The notes under the pieces are model-generated. The model was not told the DNA's origin, did no database searches, and saw nothing but the letters and a program-made list of their open reading frames with translations. 64,000 bases of DNA from a virus. This document shows positions 15,314-35,286 of this stretch, piece after piece. A program made the translations under genes and the position numbers. The stretch lies in the IMG/VR virus record IMGVR_UViG_3300045988_130630. One strand, given 5' to 3'. The stretch's first letter is position 1; each line of letters opens with the position of its first letter.

Positions 15314-16699
15314 TTACTTATTCAATGCCTTTGTAAGCATCTCTTTGATGTCGATGCCATTTTCAGACATTGCTTCAATGACCTGGTTTGCGGAACCCAT
15401 AACATCCTTTACAAGACGAGCAGAGTTTCCATCGCCATACTGGACGATCTTATCCACATTGGTAAGAGGGGCTGCCGCATTTGCCACGATTTGAGGCATT
15501 GCATTGAAATACATTTCAATGATAGAAGCTTCACCCATCTTCTTTTGTGCTTCTGCTTTCTTGTCGATTGCTGTAGCTTCGGCTTCACCAACAGCCGCAA
15601 TACCAGCAGCTTTCTGTTCGGCTGCGAACTTTTCTGCTTCAGCGCGAGCACGCATAGCTTTTGCTTCCTGCTCGATCTCATAAGCCTTAGCTTCAGCATC
15701 CTTCTGACGACGAATCAGGTCTGCTTCAGCCGCCTTTTCCGCAGCATACTTATCAGCATCAGCCTGCTTACGAACCAATGCAGTCAGTTCGTATTCCTTA
15801 AGCTCGATTTCTTTCTGCTTCAGTTCAGCTTCACGCTCAGCCTTTGCGATATTCGCGTTAGTTGCCGCAACATCCTTGAGCTTACGCTGATTTTCAGACT
15901 CAATACCAGCAGCCGCTTCTGCCTGAGCTTTCTTGGTATCAGCTTCCTGCTTCAACTGAGCCTGCTTAATAGCAAGATCGTTATTGCGGATTGCGATTTC
16001 CTCAGCGGCCTTAACCTTAGCGTCATTAGACTGCTTAGCATTTTCCGCACGAGCGACCTCAATCTCACGTTCCGCATTGGACTTAGCAATTGCCGCGTTC
16101 TTGCTAATCTGAGCGACATTATCAATACCGAGGTTAGTGATAACATCATTATCATCAGAGAAGTTCTGAACGTTAAAGGTAATCAGCTCAAGACCATAAC
16201 GTGCCAGATCAGGAACTGCATTCTCCTGGACTTTCTCACTAAACAACTTACGATCGCTAACCATATCAGTCAACTTCATCTGACCGACGATCTCACGAAT
16301 ATTACCTTCAAGAAGGTCGTTAATCTTACGAGAAATTTCATCACGGCCTACGTTAAGGAAGTTCTGAGCGGCGAGCGCAATCATTTCAGGATCTCTACCC
16401 ACACGAACAGAAACCGTAGAATCAACACGAACGTTAATGTATTCGGCAGTAGGGACCGCAGATCCAGTCTTTACATCAATTTGGATAGCTCCGAGAGCAA
16501 GCTTATCCAAACGTTCGAAGAAAGGAATCTTCAAGCCAGCTTTACCAACAAGAATTCGAGGTTTCTTATGGACACCACTGATGATATAAGCCATATCAGG
16601 CGGAGCCTTTACATAACCATTGAGGAAAATGAAAATTACCAGTAGCGCGATAAGAACTACAGGAATCGCCGGAAGGATAAATGAAATAATAGCGGGCAT
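15314..16699 (-). CDS. flotillin / SPFH (band-7) domain protein
   Basis: N-terminal TM segment, then SPFH domain (GAIQIDVKTGSAVPTAEYINVRVDSTVSVRVG). C-terminal Ala/Glu/Lys-rich coiled coil (flotillin-like). 461 aa. GC is visibly higher than neighbouring genes. A terminator hairpin follows. Confidence 0.8.
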   Translation of the reverse strand: MPAIISFILPAIPVVLIALLVIFIFLNGYVKAPPDMAYIISGVHKKPRILVGKAGLKIPFFERLDKLALGAIQIDVKTGSAVPTAEYINVRVDSTVSVRVGRDPEMIALAAQNFLNVGRDEISRKINDLLEGNIREIVGQMKLTDMVSDRKLFSEKVQENAVPDLARYGLELITFNVQNFSDDNDVITNLGIDNVAQISKNAAIAKSNAEREIEVARAENAKQSNDAKVKAAEEIAIRNNDLAIKQAQLKQEADTKKAQAEAAAGIESENQRKLKDVAATNANIAKAEREAELKQKEIELKEYELTALVRKQADADKYAAEKAAEADLIRRQKDAEAKAYEIEQEAKAMRARAEAEKFAAEQKAAGIAAVGEAEATAIDKKAEAQKKMGEASIIEMYFNAMPQIVANAAAPLTNVDKIVQYGDGNSARLVKDVMGSANQVIEAMSENGIDIKEMLTKALNK

Positions 16700-16725
16700 A
16701 AATAATTCTCCTTATTTATTTAATT

Positions 16726-16989
16726 TTAAATTTTATACTTATATTTGAATAATGCTTCAATAGCATCATCAATCGAATTATAGTATCCATTATGTTCAAA
16801 TTCTCCATCTTCATCCCATAAAAAAGAGATTTCTACACCTAATGGACCTTGTTCCAATTTTTCTTTTACTTCTTTGTAAATTGCTTCTTCCATTTGTCTT
16901 GTTATTAATTTTTCCCAATCTTCATAGGACATTTTTCCAGTAATGAGTTTTTTTGTTAAATCATTACCTTTATAATCATAAAGTGCCAT
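16726..16989 (-). CDS. hypothetical protein (87 aa)
   Basis: ORF only. Confidence 0.3.
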   Translation of the reverse strand: MALYDYKGNDLTKKLITGKMSYEDWEKLITRQMEEAIYKEVKEKLEQGPLGVEISFLWDEDGEFEHNGYYNSIDDAIEALFKYKYKI

Positions 16990-16999
16990 TTAATTTTCC

Positions 17000-17560
17000 T
17001 CATTCATCAAGAAATGATTTACATTCCTCAACTTTGGCTTTCATAGCATCAATGATTACATCAAGATTAATTGGATAGCCATGATGAGAATCAACACCTA
17101 CATGATACATATAAGGTCGATCTTCAAAGAAGTTAGTGGTTTGATGAGTATGACCGTAAAGATTCAAAGTCATTTGATGAAGATTTTCTCTTTCAAGATT
17201 GCCAGTCATACAAGGGAAATGGGTCATAAAGAAATGGTATTTACGATAATTTAGCATAATCGCCCAATCCATTTCAACAACATTAGGCAAATCTGCGTAA
17301 AGTTTCTGCCGAGTTGCTGTATCATGGTTGCCAAATACAATATGAAATTTGCCTTTAAGACGTTTAACATATTCAATATTAGAAGGTTCTCCAAGCATTA
17401 AATCACCAAGAATATAAACATCATCTTCATCAGAAACGATGCTATTCCATTTCTCAACATAATCTTCATTCATTTCTTCAATTGAAGAATAACCGCGAGC
17501 TTTCCAAATAAATTCTCGATCATGTCCAAAGTGCATATCACTGGTTAAAAAGATTGCCAT
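17000..17560 (-). CDS. metallophosphoesterase (calcineurin-like)
   Basis: DMHFGHD, GDLMLGE, GNHD and GHTH motifs. 186 aa. Overlaps the upstream kinase ORF by 16 nt. Confidence 0.7.
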   Translation of the reverse strand: MAIFLTSDMHFGHDREFIWKARGYSSIEEMNEDYVEKWNSIVSDEDDVYILGDLMLGEPSNIEYVKRLKGKFHIVFGNHDTATRQKLYADLPNVVEMDWAIMLNYRKYHFFMTHFPCMTGNLERENLHQMTLNLYGHTHQTTNFFEDRPYMYHVGVDSHHGYPINLDVIIDAMKAKVEECKSFLDE

Positions 17561-33305: not shown

Positions 33306-33661
33306 CAATTATCAGAAGTTTTCCAGGTAAAAAAATCATAAATATCTTCGCTATTGTTGATTGGGTAATATTTTATTTTTCCATTCTTGTCTTTAATTTC
33401 ACAAATAGATGTTTCACTATTAACTTTTTCCCAAATTAATTTATTAAAAGTATCAAATTCTTCATCAATTTCAGGAAATCCGCGAGAAGAAATAATCATA
33501 TCCCATACCATTGATACAGGATAATAAAATACATCTTCATACCAAGCTCCAAAATCATCTTCAAGATTAAAAACTTGATTAAAAATATTAAAAAGTTTTT
33601 CTCTAATGCGAAAAATTTCAATTAAGCGATCAATATTACTAATAACAGTTTCTTTATCCAT
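33305..33661 (-). CDS. hypothetical protein (118 aa)
   Basis: ORF between the MVP and TROVE genes. Confidence 0.35.
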   Translation of the reverse strand: MDKETVISNIDRLIEIFRIREKLFNIFNQVFNLEDDFGAWYEDVFYYPVSMVWDMIISSRGFPEIDEEFDTFNKLIWEKVNSETSICEIKDKNGKIKYYPINNSEDIYDFFTWKTSDN

Positions 33662-33679
33662 TTTTATCTCCTAAAGAAA

Positions 33680-33717
33680 AAATGGGTTAGATATTTAATT
33701 AAATATCTAACCCATTA
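33680..33717 (-). terminator. rho-independent terminator after the TROVE gene
   Basis: gggttagatatttaattaaatatctaaccc perfect hairpin plus T-run. Confidence 0.55.
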
Positions 33718-33720
33718 AAA

Positions 33721-35286
33721 TTACTTAATACAAGCGTAGCGCTCGCTATTAAGCTTTTCCATCATGAGATCGTACCCAGTCTTTCCAGAAAGGATAGTCT
33801 CAAAAATGGTAGGACTCATGCCGGATACAAAGGAAATACCATTCTTAACAGTCATAGGAATATTGTTCTGACGAGCATCAACATTCCAGAAGATAAGATT
33901 AGGCATCTTATATCCATAAGCATTCCATTCCTTTTCAATCTTCTCCATCAGAGTATTACCGACAGTACCATAACTACCACAGCGAACGCAGGAATTAAAT
34001 TCCATATCGCTAATGATAATCAGATTTTCGGGAATCTCATCCTGAGAACAACCATTTTTAATGGCAGTCTTAAGCATAAGGTCAAAGGCAGATTCAACGT
34101 TAGTAGAACCGCCCCAAGGAGCAGAGCTAATACGCTTTACCTTATCGCAAAAATCAACACCTTCAACTTCCATGAAGTGAGGAGCAGACTCGAAAGTCAT
34201 AAAATGATTTGCGAACGGGCCCTTAGCCTTATCTGCGCAATACATACCAATGGAAATAGCTACATTGATAGGAGCAGAAGCTTTACTACCAATCATAGAA
34301 CCAGAAGTATCAACGAGAGCCATACCATTAAAAGTCTTACCGGCAAAGTAATCAGCGAGATTCGCCCAATACTTATTAATCATAAGACGATCAGTATTGT
34401 CCATAGGGATAGCATGATCGTAACCATACCAACCATAACCGCCATAACCCATAAGGTTCATAGCCTTAGCAACACACTCATAAGGATAGAGAGCCTTGGC
34501 ATTAACCGTGGTGGTTTCATCCTTGGCAAAATTCTCATAAGTGCGGGCGCCGGCCTTCTGACGCTCAATGTCGTGACGCGCAAAAGCATTCTTATAGATA
34601 AGACCTGCGCGAGAAGGAATCTTATCGAATTCAATCTTATCCCACTCGCCCGCAGACATCAAACGCTCAAGAACATTAATGCGCTTACGAAGAATAGAGA
34701 GAGTCTTACGATACTGACGAGGAGTCATATTAAGATACTGACGAGTTTTCATGCCGAGATACCGAGACTTTGCGGAACTGGTGTTTTCGCTCTTCAGCCA
34801 TTTAGCCAAAAGAGAAGGAGTTTTACACTGAACATCAAGAGCCAACTGCTCCTTAATAAGAGTATATGCCTCATTCTCAATGACCGTACCATCAAAGACA
34901 TAAAGGTCATCCCAACGACCAAACTCAGGGACATTCTTTAAATTGCGAATAACGGCCTCAGATTCATTATTCGCCAGCCACTTCATACAAACGCGGAAGA
35001 AGCGACGCTCACCCTGACCACCGCGCACATCGCGGATATAAAACAGACACTTCAAGGCACAAAGAGGATTCTCACGATATGCCTTCTGGAACATAAGAAG
35101 AACATCCTCATCACTACGCTTACGCATAGAAGCGCCGAGCGCGAACATATCCAAAAGATCACTGGTCGTGGTCTTATGAGTAAGTGCGCCATTCTCCGTA
35201 CGAGTATAATTAGTCTCATTCTTCATGCCATTCAAAAAAGTATTCATATTTGTTTCTCCTTTTTCACTTTGATTTCTCTTGGACAA
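33721..35286 (-). CDS. TROVE-domain plus vWA (Ro60/TEP1-like) protein
   Basis: N-terminal TROVE-like region. C-terminal vWA with MIDAS motif (ALVDTSGSMIG). 521 aa. Architecture matches Ro60/Rsr. Higher GC. Confidence 0.7.
   Translation of the reverse strand: MSKRNQSEKGETNMNTFLNGMKNETNYTRTENGALTHKTTTSDLLDMFALGASMRKRSDEDVLLMFQKAYRENPLCALKCLFYIRDVRGGQGERRFFRVCMKWLANNESEAVIRNLKNVPEFGRWDDLYVFDGTVIENEAYTLIKEQLALDVQCKTPSLLAKWLKSENTSSAKSRYLGMKTRQYLNMTPRQYRKTLSILRKRINVLERLMSAGEWDKIEFDKIPSRAGLIYKNAFARHDIERQKAGARTYENFAKDETTTVNAKALYPYECVAKAMNLMGYGGYGWYGYDHAIPMDNTDRLMINKYWANLADYFAGKTFNGMALVDTSGSMIGSKASAPINVAISIGMYCADKAKGPFANHFMTFESAPHFMEVEGVDFCDKVKRISSAPWGGSTNVESAFDLMLKTAIKNGCSQDEIPENLIIISDMEFNSCVRCGSYGTVGNTLMEKIEKEWNAYGYKMPNLIFWNVDARQNNIPMTVKNGISFVSGMSPTIFETILSGKTGYDLMMEKLNSERYACIK

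Follow-up and report, generated by a model that had tools for sequence, protein, structure and literature searches.

Synonymous avoidance of A-ending codons marks four GC-rich gene islands in an AT-rich phage

Genes of phage T4 are said, following Cowe and Sharp in 1991, to fall into codon-usage classes tied to the time of their expression, and atypical islands acquired by transfer reportedly ameliorate towards the composition of the recipient, as put forward by Lawrence and Ochman in 1997. Here, we analyzed a stretch of 64,000 nucleotides from the virus record IMGVR_UViG_3300045988_130630, called the window, and four GC-rich gene islands between its positions 15314 and 35286. The islands are the genes of a flotillin, an RNA ligase, a protein similar to major vault protein (MVP), and a protein with DUF2828 and DUF7788 domains and a vWA-type motif. 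They are probably a codon-usage class maintained by selection, a host-dialect for genes made in bulk or early, and not footprints of recent import. In phages, GC content at third codon positions (GC3) and the codon adaptation index form non-random landscapes, explained by translational selection that acts on proteins of high copy number (Lucks et al. 2008, PMC2266997). The bias in the window is likewise non-random, confined to genes, and persistent after control for amino-acid composition. Unlike in those landscapes, the strongest class comprises the MVP-like, flotillin, vWA/DUF2828, and RNA ligase genes, not head and tail proteins; here, A-ending codons are avoided while T-ending codons remain at mutational equilibrium, and adaptation to host codons is inferred, not measured. 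The islands share sharp edges, deviant GC content, and deviant codon usage with ameliorating transfer islands. In contrast to these, they are core syntenic genes without a close donor, their third-position bases do not decay together, and there is no net flux from GC to AT among close strains. The phenomenon is of a known kind, that of phage codon-usage classes; the unusual gene set and the link to stop-codon recoding are new.

RNA-repair systems with ROT/TROVE and SPFH/Band-7 scaffold proteins were reportedly described by Burroughs and Aravind in 2016. The 15-35 kb part of the window encodes the Band-7/flotillin, two metallophosphoesterases, a P-loop kinase, NADAR, the RNA ligase, an RlaP nucleotidyltransferase, a cREC_REC protein, and the MVP-like and vWA/DUF2828 proteins, with tRNA genes after them. 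The co-location of RNA ligase, P-loop kinase, phosphoesterases, RlaP, cREC, NADAR, Band-7, a vWA protein, and many tRNAs resembles the systems treated in sections of Iyer et al. 2021 (PMC7824862), and the gene set fits the RNA-repair and NAD-related counter-defence repertoire of large phages outlined in those sections. The same sections describe neither an MVP-like cage protein in such a neighborhood nor a codon class reserved for its large members. Viral MVP homologues are present in the human-gut Caudoviricetes ctOa11 and ct2Ri15, whose relatives infect Bacillota (Santos et al., bioRxiv 10.1101/2023.11.10.566534); "GC content" and "codon" are absent from this preprint. Like the gut-phage MVPs described there, the MVP-like protein of the window combines a shoulder domain with a vault repeat and belongs to a large gut phage thought to infect Bacillota. 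The eukaryotic vault is composed of MVP, TEP1 (TROVE, vWA), PARP4, and vault RNA, and the position of the MVP-like gene next to a vWA putative RNA-binding gene recalls the MVP-TEP1 pair. Unlike in the eukaryotic vault, no TROVE domain is detectable, and no gene resembling vault RNA or Y RNA was found beside the DUF2828 and MVP genes when 33-42.5 kb was searched with Rfam by E-value. The phage is also consistent with the low-GC gut phages with recoded TAG that are presented in parts of Borges et al. (bioRxiv 10.1101/2021.08.26.457843), with which it shares low GC content, a CUA suppressor tRNA, in-frame TAG in lysis and structural genes, and some genes free of the recoded stop. A linked A-avoiding synonymous class is not described in those parts, and the correlation between A-ending codons and TAG density found here would extend the idea.

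GC content was analyzed in sliding windows, per gene, and in 150-nt bins, and proteins were re-coded in simulations using the codon choice of 45 background genes. The whole window has a GC content of 33.3%, and nearly all its genes lie on the minus strand. GC content peaks at 0.46 (15.5-16.5 kb), 0.42 (23-24 kb), 0.42-0.44 (31-33 kb), and 0.43 (34-35 kb). Pooled over the islands, it is 0.428, compared with 0.310 in the rest of 15314-35286 and with 0.291 and 0.285 in the flanks (5-15.3 kb and 35.3-39 kb). The island edges are sharp, with 150-nt bins changing from 0.17-0.33 outside to 0.40-0.52 inside. The GC3 of the islands is 0.34-0.41, compared with a background of 0.19 and with 0.18-0.22 for the re-coded proteins (z = +8.7 to +14.9 across the four islands). 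The share of A at third positions (A3) is decreased relative to the simulation, with z = -10.5 to -17.9. The re-coding controls, which were the topoisomerase II subunits, PhoH, and a methylase, all stay within +/-2.3. The flotillin island (15314-16699, minus strand) has GC 0.452, GC3 0.407, and A3 0.17 (GC3 z = 13.5, A3 z = -10.5), and the RNA ligase island (22959-24344, minus strand) has GC 0.405, GC3 0.344, and A3 0.11 (z = 8.7 and -11.8). The corresponding values are 0.430, 0.360, and 0.11 (z = 14.9 and -17.9) for the MVP-like island (30743-33241, minus strand), and 0.424, 0.408, and 0.07 (z = 12.3 and -13.6) for the DUF2828/DUF7788 island (33721-35286, minus strand). Two other GC peaks of the window have different origins. 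The peak at 39.3-41.5 kb is formed by tRNA genes and a RAGATH-33 RNA, and the peak at 49-54 kb reflects amino-acid composition: it arises at codon positions 1 and 2, with high GC1 and GC2 and a GC3 of about 0.19.

An initial annotation of the window had described the flotillin, MVP, and TROVE/vWA genes as GC-richer than flanks of about 28% GC. The clear deviation of the windowed GC content and the GC3 z values of 8.7-14.9 bear out the description of the genes, and the measured 0.291 and 0.285 agree with that of the flanks. The list of islands was correct for the three named genes and omitted the fourth, the RNA ligase gene at 22959-24344. The interval 15314-35286, to which the islands had been assigned, is only partly island (6,837 of its 19,973 bases), and the same signature is also present outside it, at 40997-41368 and 52987-53616. 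Among the GC-rich codons singled out in the annotation, CTG (16% vs 2% of Leu codons in islands and background) and CGC (25% vs 15% of Arg) are enriched, and GCC is so weakly (13% vs 10%).

The dominant codon shifts in the islands are from AAA to AAG, CAA to CAG, TTA to CTT or CTG, AGA to CGT, and TTT to TTC. AAA provides 16% of Lys codons in the islands and 80% in the background, CAA 6% and 82% of Gln codons, TTA 1% and 48% of Leu codons, and AGA 7% and 32% of Arg codons. Similarly, the shares decrease from 13% to 0% for ATA (Ile), from 30% to 0% for CCA (Pro), from 14% to 1% for TCA (Ser), and from 23% to 5% for ACA (Thr). GCA is kept at 24% in the islands while CCA and TCA are lost, and GAT, AAT, TAT, and CAT stay at 80-85%. 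The frequency of A in the islands and background is 0.31 and 0.35 at codon position 1, 0.37 and 0.37 at position 2, and 0.11 and 0.29 at position 3. T at position 3 (T3) is 0.51 in the islands and 0.52 in the background, and C at position 3 (C3) is also increased in the islands. The depletion depends on the reading frame. TTA occurs 0.9 times per 1000 codons in the islands vs 33 in the background when counted in frame, and 38 vs 45 times in frame +1. The in-frame depletion of TTA, ATA, and TCA reaches 20-40-fold or more, and the other frames are barely affected.

Position 3 contributes 67% and position 1 contributes 35% of the GC excess of the islands (+0.19 GC3, +0.10 GC1), and the position-1 share is partly synonymous, as it includes the switches from TTA to CTN and from AGA to CGN. 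Neighboring genes in the same transcription units show background usage: orf198 has a GC3 of 0.136 beside 0.344 in the RNA ligase gene, and orf87 has a GC3 of 0.159 beside 0.407 in the flotillin gene. The codon bias is synonymous; it is tied to position 3 and to reading frame, stops at gene borders even within one transcription unit, and is conserved across orthologues. Two structural-looking, tail-fibre-like genes at 48950-52435 (minus strand) avoid A at third positions (A3 z = -3.0 and -7.2) without an increase in GC3 (z = 0.1 and 1.6). Therefore, the avoidance of A-ending codons is the primary variable, and GC-richness is its consequence in genes with many Lys, Gln, Glu, Leu, and Arg codons.

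The most extreme signature in the window belongs to a small open reading frame (ORF) of 123 aa at 40997-41368 (minus strand), located between tRNA-Ser and tRNA-Thr genes. It has a GC3 of 0.484 (z = 9.1), A3 of 0.06 (z = -8.5), and a G-ending share of Lys, Gln, and Glu codons of 0.86. Family searches with this ORF gave only weak matches, and a search of solved structures gave no useful match. The related loci L021 and L024 hold ORFs of 123 aa that have the same length and signature as this one. The signature is also present in the C-terminal part (52987-53616; A3 0.10, mild GC3 rise) of a tail-fibre-like gene with an Mtd_N domain (52987-54234, minus strand), which encodes 415 aa if two in-frame TAG codons are read through.

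Related loci were collected from IMG/VR scans, and the related phages are 110-200 kb long. The orthologues of the MVP-like protein are 98, 97, 81, 75, 68, 66, 63, and 60% identical to it, and the flotillin orthologues are 55-100% identical. Synteny of the four island genes extends over all five near-identical strain loci that were examined and over relatives with protein identities as low as 55-60%, with the RNA ligase gene included where present. In the relatives, A3 is 0.04-0.20 in the MVP, DUF2828, and, where present, RNA ligase genes, and 0.3-0.45 in their neighbors; TTA, ATA, and AGA stay almost absent from these three genes. Flotillin orthologues hold the signature in most of 18 loci. 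At four-fold degenerate sites of conserved residues, orthologues differ by 0.46-0.54, where 0.53-0.60 is expected for full randomization (85-95%), and an orthologue with 98% protein identity already differs at 25% of such sites. A is nevertheless present at only 0.06-0.12 of the four-fold sites in the window genes and the closer relatives. In unrelated phages, homologues have ordinary composition and form no islands (MVP in LR756500 and LR756501, DUF2828 in Bacillus phage PBC2); therefore, the trait belongs to this phage lineage and not to the gene families.

We propose that mutation pressure pushes the third positions of phage genes to about 52% T and 29% A. In a few long and conserved genes, selection at translation would strip A-ending codons, TTA/ATA/AGA, and the recoded TAG, and would leave T-ending codons untouched. 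Lys, Gln, and partly Glu would thus be encoded by G-ending codons, Leu by CTT/CTG, and Arg by CGT/CGC, and the GC island would be a by-product. C- and T-ending codons share GNN tRNAs, and A-ending codons need UNN tRNAs. T-ending codons could be read by the GNN tRNAs that serve the favoured C-ending codons of the host. The selective agent would be the unmodified host translation apparatus operating with the standard code, and the host would be a moderately to highly GC-rich member of Clostridia avoiding the same A-ending codons. The island genes would be translated fast, in quantity, and probably early, and the bulk of the genes may lean on the large tRNA set and the amber suppressor of the phage itself. 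The island proteins would be of kinds needed in many copies, formers of cages and scaffolds, in a neighborhood of RNA-repair type. The MVP-like, vWA/DUF2828, flotillin, and RNA ligase genes are the most strongly codon-constrained seen in this part of the phage, which suggests that their products are made in large amounts and is a reason to study the role of the vault-like cage and flotillin during infection.

The codon choice of Clostridia was sampled from chromosomal loci, in which the G-ending share is 0.90-0.92 for CAR, 0.97-0.98 for CTR, 0.86-0.94 for CCR, and 0.66-0.72 for AAR codons, and in which C is used where the phage uses T. The purine-ending choices of the islands resemble those of the Clostridia loci for Lys, Gln, Leu, Pro, and CGR. 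The avoided codon class is a pointer to the host, which probably belongs to Clostridia that avoid A-ending codons. A host from Bacillota is also hinted at by SLH-domain genes in the relatives, Shine-Dalgarno sites, sigma-70-type promoters, bin labels of metagenome-assembled genomes (MAGs), and the preprint on viral MVPs.

From the arrangement of the genes and their codon choice, we infer high or early expression of the island genes. The motif TTGATT-N17-TATAAT, which is part of a longer conserved cassette, is present in ten copies, all on the coding strand (minus; positions 1687, 18502, 19582, 21342, 25563, 30659, 33280, 35324, 37218, and 60581), with 0.33 copies expected by chance. In the cassette, a terminator-like hairpin is often followed by the motif and then by a conserved leader (ATATATA..AAGTTAAGAAAGGA); the cassette is also present in the relatives L022, L023, and L030. 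The MVP-like gene has a private copy of the motif at 33280-33308 (minus strand; TTGATTTTTATAAAAAAATAATATATAAT), which occupies the same place in L020, L021, L023, L024, and L029. The private copy of the DUF2828 gene, at 35324-35352 (minus strand; TTGATTTTTTTTAAAAAATAATATATAAT), is kept in L020, L022, L023, L024, L026, and L030. The MVP-like gene is followed by a terminator-like hairpin at 30698-30724 (minus strand; 11-pair stem with 6 G-C pairs, T run) and appears to be monocistronic, and the DUF2828 gene is followed by a hairpin at 33681-33716 (minus strand; 16-pair stem, T run). The private consensus promoter and own terminator of each of these two genes, the prediction of cage and scaffold proteins in many copies, and the graded signature of the tail-fibre-like genes would fit high expression, if indirectly.

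The flotillin gene is the last of a unit that is headed by a sigma-70-like promoter motif, an exact match at 18502-18530 (minus strand), and comprises orf68, the kinase (17545-18075), the phosphoesterase (17000-17560), orf87, and flotillin. A hairpin with a 15-pair stem and T run follows it (15276-15310, minus strand), and no promoter motif is located directly upstream of the flotillin gene in the window or in eight relatives. The RNA ligase gene lies inside a longer unit headed by an exact match to the motif at 25563-25591 (minus strand). Thus, the proposal that each island gene had acquired the native phage promoter applies to the MVP-like and DUF2828 genes and fails for flotillin and RNA ligase. 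The associated idea, that the promoters were gained after a recent import, conflicts with the pairing of promoter and gene in the relatives, which is hence old. TAG-containing structural genes lack the promoter motif, are closely spaced, and have strong Shine-Dalgarno sites.

Several observations weigh against a class maintained by selection for expression in the host. Other genes behind the same promoter motif are not codon-optimized, and the signature is missing from two members of the putative RNA-repair set, the kinase and the phosphoesterase (G-ending share of Lys, Gln, and Glu codons 0.24 and 0.11). The islands differ from the Clostridia loci at AGR, TCR, GGR, and GTR. The nearly complete tRNA set of the phage includes readers of codons favoured in the islands (Leu-AAG, Thr-AGU, Glu-CUC, Ser-GGA). 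The signature is relaxed in some lineages, namely in the MVP gene of L030, the most distant locus (A3 0.25), and in the flotillin genes of L083, L069, and L079. Among synonymous singletons of the window and two close strains, gains and losses of A number 81:40; this is below the neutral expectation of 3.7:1 (p = 0.003), yet gains still outnumber losses 2:1, so the equilibrium is not perfect. The singletons were polarised by an unrooted majority rule, which is imperfect.

The A-avoiding class is linked to the reassignment of a stop codon. TAG appears to be read as sense in this phage, and standard-code gene calls are therefore fragmented. Reading TAG as sense fuses the fragments into long ORFs at 8828-10129, 42149-43750, 47189-48694, 52987-54234, 54604-55866, and 56259-58382 (all minus strand), and one fused ORF of 501 aa holds ten TAG codons. 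The lysin gene at 8828-10129 contains eight in-frame TAG codons, seven of which are inside full-length Phage_lysozyme2 and Amidase_2 matches, and an ALK_LTK_GRD match spans one TAG in 42149-43750. A tRNA with the anticodon CUA, of the amber suppressor type, is encoded at 59478-59550 (minus strand; ARAGORN; Rfam tRNA 49.8 bits); it is one of the decoding tRNAs of the phage itself, which the island genes would not require. Over 55 genes, A3 and the density of in-frame TAG are correlated (rho = 0.50, p = 1e-4), with 0.71 TAG per 1000 codons in the low-A3 genes and 5.26 in the rest; the four island genes contain no in-frame TAG. This coupling of synonymous codon choice to stop-codon recoding, whereby genes with few A-ending codons likewise have few in-frame TAG codons, is testable in other recoded phages. 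Just past the right end of the window, locus L165 (1-13500) contains an array of 21 tRNAs that is a nearly complete set and includes Ile-UAU, Leu-UAG, Glu-UUC, Glu-CUC, two CAU tRNAs, and the CUA suppressor. Because the array is nearly complete, the idea that phage tRNAs specifically read the avoided A-ending codons is weakened. Several assemblies break inside the array, about 4-8 kb upstream of the gene at window position 61918-62286.

We speculate, while considering it rather unlikely, that the phage uses two dialects. Large genes (MVP-like, vWA/DUF2828, flotillin, RNA ligase, an AAA+ ATPase, and others) would be written in the standard code without A-ending codons, and the rest would rely on about 30 phage tRNAs and on TAG as a sense codon. 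If this were true, codon choice would be part of a temporal or counter-defence programme of the vault-like RNA-handling module, and the module could possibly be built even while host nucleases cut tRNAs with U34. A related explanation is that the island genes were hardened to be translatable when certain tRNAs are missing, either before the phage tRNAs and the amber suppressor accumulate (a temporal programme with a code switch) or when U34 tRNAs (Lys-UUU, Gln-UUG, Glu-UUC) are being eliminated by anticodon nucleases of the host. The two versions taken together seem to us unlikely. They are consistent with the strongest shifts being at Lys and Gln, with the absence of in-frame TAG from the islands, and with the correlation of A3 with TAG density. 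The nuclease version suits the neighborhood of RNA ligase, kinase, phosphoesterases, RlaP, cREC_REC, and NADAR, and RNA repair by phages as a response to tRNA cleavage is a recognized theme (PMC7824862). The temporal version agrees with parts of Borges et al. (bioRxiv 10.1101/2021.08.26.457843) in which standard-code genes of recoded phages are considered to function ahead of the switch in code. However, nearly all A-ending codons are avoided, beyond those read by known nuclease targets, and the kinase and phosphoesterase, which belong to the same repair set, are without the signature. Furthermore, the Mtd_N tail-fibre-like gene shares the signature despite its in-frame TAG, and the tRNA set of the phage is broad and not specific to A-ending codons.

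It is also possible, though with a lower probability than the hardening of codons, that the genes were acquired long ago from GC-rich Clostridia and have ameliorated slowly and incompletely under neutrality, with no selection on codons. The flotillin gene offers a case for this. Flotillins 66-71% identical to that of the window are encoded in rumen Oscillospiraceae/Ruminococcaceae MAG loci (L088-L093, L095) with 51-64% GC (58-64% for Oscillospiraceae chromosomes) and have a GC3 of 0.82-0.92, in line with the genome. Locus L089 is clearly chromosomal, as upstream it encodes RpiB, cytochrome c552 nitrite reductase, ResB, and CcsA. In a neighbor-joining tree, phage flotillins form one clade with the bacterial members L089 and L091 nested within it, and the Lachnospiraceae genes form a separate clade. 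Among the four islands, the flotillin gene uses C-ending codons most (0.36) and has the T3 furthest from equilibrium (0.42), and the signature is weaker in some lineages. However, neutral C>T and G>A decay should go together, whereas T3 is 76-100% equilibrated and A3 0-50%. The strength of the signature does not track divergence, as L023 and L024, with 75% identity, have a stronger signature than the window. The codon-specific exceptions (GCA 24%, CCA 0%, TCA 1%) point to decoding and not to base composition, and the structural-looking genes at 48950-52435 avoid A3 without GC excess. T3 is at the phage equilibrium, A3 is depleted three-fold, and the pattern has outlasted synonymous saturation; therefore, the signature is not a fading donor composition.

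A relatively recent transfer of each island from a higher-GC donor, whose composition the genes would still carry, had been proposed in the initial annotation and is rejected here as highly improbable. The atypical composition and sharp boundaries suit it, as do the flotillin relatives in Oscillospiraceae chromosomes with 58-64% GC and in Lachnospiraceae with 45-55% GC. The latter belong to a larger block of flotillins of about 50-55% identity from Lachnospiraceae and other Eubacteriales, which includes one on a complete 3.76 Mb chromosome. Nevertheless, the genes are syntenic throughout a deeply diverged phage clade and their synonymous sites have turned over. T3 has reached the phage equilibrium while A3 remains three-fold depleted. 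Among the polarised synonymous singletons of the window and two close strains, AT>GC changes (241) are at least as frequent as GC>AT changes (170), and there is no net GC>AT flux. DUF2828 and RNA ligase are ordinary phage families, and the sampled nearest relatives of the MVP-like protein are on phage-sized contigs. The nearest cellular flotillins (66-71%) are more distant than phage orthologues (77-81%), and four-fold sites of phage and bacterial copies differ by 0.84, with 0.85 expected, and are fully randomized. The exchange of flotillin is hence not recent. An old exchange between phages and GC-rich Clostridia, in either direction, is plausible from these comparisons, so the donor idea is kept in part for flotillin, with its higher-GC cellular relatives, and is lost as a recent event. 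The donor scan of the genome collection was made with the flotillin query only. MAG contigs that carry the labels Clostridium or Mollicutes gave flotillin matches of 77-99% identity; we interpret these contigs as phage DNA binned in error, which codon statistics confirmed for the two loci with 99% identity (L084, L085). A sharp GC island in an AT-rich phage thus need not mean import, and transfer detectors based on GC content or codon usage would mis-call these genes.

The least credible cause is mutational, namely transcription-associated or strand-specific mutation bias or the avoidance of mRNA nuclease sites: it fits the location of all genes on one strand and the increase of G and T at position 3 of the coding strand, but the background usage of neighbors in the same transcription unit rules out a transcription-linked process, A is unchanged at positions 1 and 2, TTA/ATA/TCA are depleted in frame only, and C3 also rises.

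The MVP-like protein has 832 aa (828 aa in most database calls) and matches Pfam MVP_shoulder (1.4e-21) and Vault_3 (7e-8). A shoulder domain, vault repeats, and a cap-helix region align to solved MVPs. The rat and human MVP structures match its residues 317-758 with 3e-17, and its 316 N-terminal residues are unmatched. An exhaustive search for MVP yielded 1,221 clusters at 50% identity, with nearest relatives 39-57% identical (best 57%). All ten of the closest cluster representatives sampled are on phage-sized contigs of at most 255 kb. The label "eukaryote-like", given to the islands in the initial annotation, is loosely apt for MVP and does not suit flotillin, DUF2828, and RNA ligase, which are bacterial or phage families. 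In the huge phages LR756500 and LR756501, no DUF2828 gene accompanies that of MVP within 20 kb.

The gene adjoining that of the MVP-like protein encodes the DUF2828 and DUF7788 protein (phrog_850 "RNA-binding protein"; Pfam 1.7e-37 and 1.6e-30; phrog_850 2.6e-134). Its ORF has 521 aa, and the start is likely the ATG at 35247 (508 aa), which is preceded by AAAGGAG. The vWA-type MIDAS motif D313-x-S315-G316-S317 is invariant in seven DUF2828 orthologues. DUF2828/DUF7788 (phrog_850) is present in 693 phage records, the nearest of which are Bacillus phages with about 43% identity. Pfam, NCBIfam, and PDB searches with the single sequence or a seven-sequence profile found no TROVE domain in the protein, so the vWA half of the earlier TROVE/vWA label is confirmed by the MIDAS motif, and the TROVE half is not detected by sequence.

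The ATP-dependent RNA ligase has 461 aa (458 aa from the likely start) and is composed of Pfam RNA_ligase and a PHA02142 OB-fold domain; it matches phrog_968 with 3e-65 and TIGR02306 with 1e-9, and a search of solved structures gave no useful match. The gene adjoins an upstream AT-rich ORF at 24352-24948 (GC3 0.136). The flotillin is a FloT-like SPFH/Band-7 protein of 461 aa (Pfam Band_7 6.5e-20 and Flot). Human flotillin-1 matches its residues 33-446 with 8e-43, and flotillin-2 matches with 2e-36. The bacterial NCBIfam FloT model aligns over positions 5-474 of 477, and the protein is full length; its score of 219 bits misses the cut-off of 700, and it is thus not an equivalog. With this end-to-end alignment to a bacterial model, the reading of flotillin as eukaryote-like is misleading.

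The MVP-like protein has near-identical copies on many metagenomic contigs of 160-200 kb (more than 120 near-identical matches), and human faecal samples are the source of the related phage-collection contigs. These matches indicate that the source is an abundant uncultured tailed phage, AT-rich, about 190-200 kb long, and present in gut metagenomes. A megablast search of a 22 kb region against the phage collection gave zero matches. Other products encoded in the window include topoisomerase II subunits, DNA ligase, PhoH, tail-fibre-like proteins, and at least nine tRNAs. Located among the island genes are those of NADAR (20641-21084), a weak match to a ParE/RelE-type toxin (25597-25872), the RlaP nucleotidyltransferase (27735-28541), and the cREC_REC "cyclic-phosphate processing" domain (29155-29475), which suggest functions in NAD/ADP-ribose and RNA-end processing.

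Genes with the same signature were also observed elsewhere. An AAA+ ATPase of 379 aa, TAG-free and encoded inside the tRNA array past the right end of the window (L165 6786-7925), has an A3 of 0.13. In relatives, ORFs of 355-378 aa upstream of DUF2828 (L022 5775-6842, L026 6307-7443, L028 5470-6606) have a partial signature. They are not the same AAA+ ATPase, as those of L022 and L026, which were scanned, encode unrelated SLH-domain proteins. Since the AAA+ ATPase and unrelated SLH-domain genes bear the signature, the codon class cuts across functions. The SLH-domain proteins beside DUF2828 hint at a Gram-positive host with SLH-anchored wall proteins. In the unrelated 121 kb human faecal phage contig MT835492, a flotillin homologue with 46% identity (L008 6918-8471) forms a milder codon island, with a GC3 of 0.28 vs 0.10-0.20 and a G-ending share of Lys, Gln, and Glu codons of 0.62. 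Selection of this kind may thus extend to the flotillins of other phages.

A GC-richer stretch poor in ORFs at 39.3-40.8 kb contains the RAGATH-33 RNA (39422-39550, minus strand; 126.8 bits, above the gathering score) and two promoter-like copies of the motif, at about 40192 and 40394. Further non-coding RNAs may be encoded there. The region of 35375-36553 and the small ORFs of 35.3-39 kb form a hypervariable accessory zone, in which whole cassettes are swapped between strains (compared with L003-L007). Some strains carry an Eco57I-type methylase, and PDDEXK_5, radical-SAM, polyprenyl synthase, or glycine-rich genes are present instead elsewhere.

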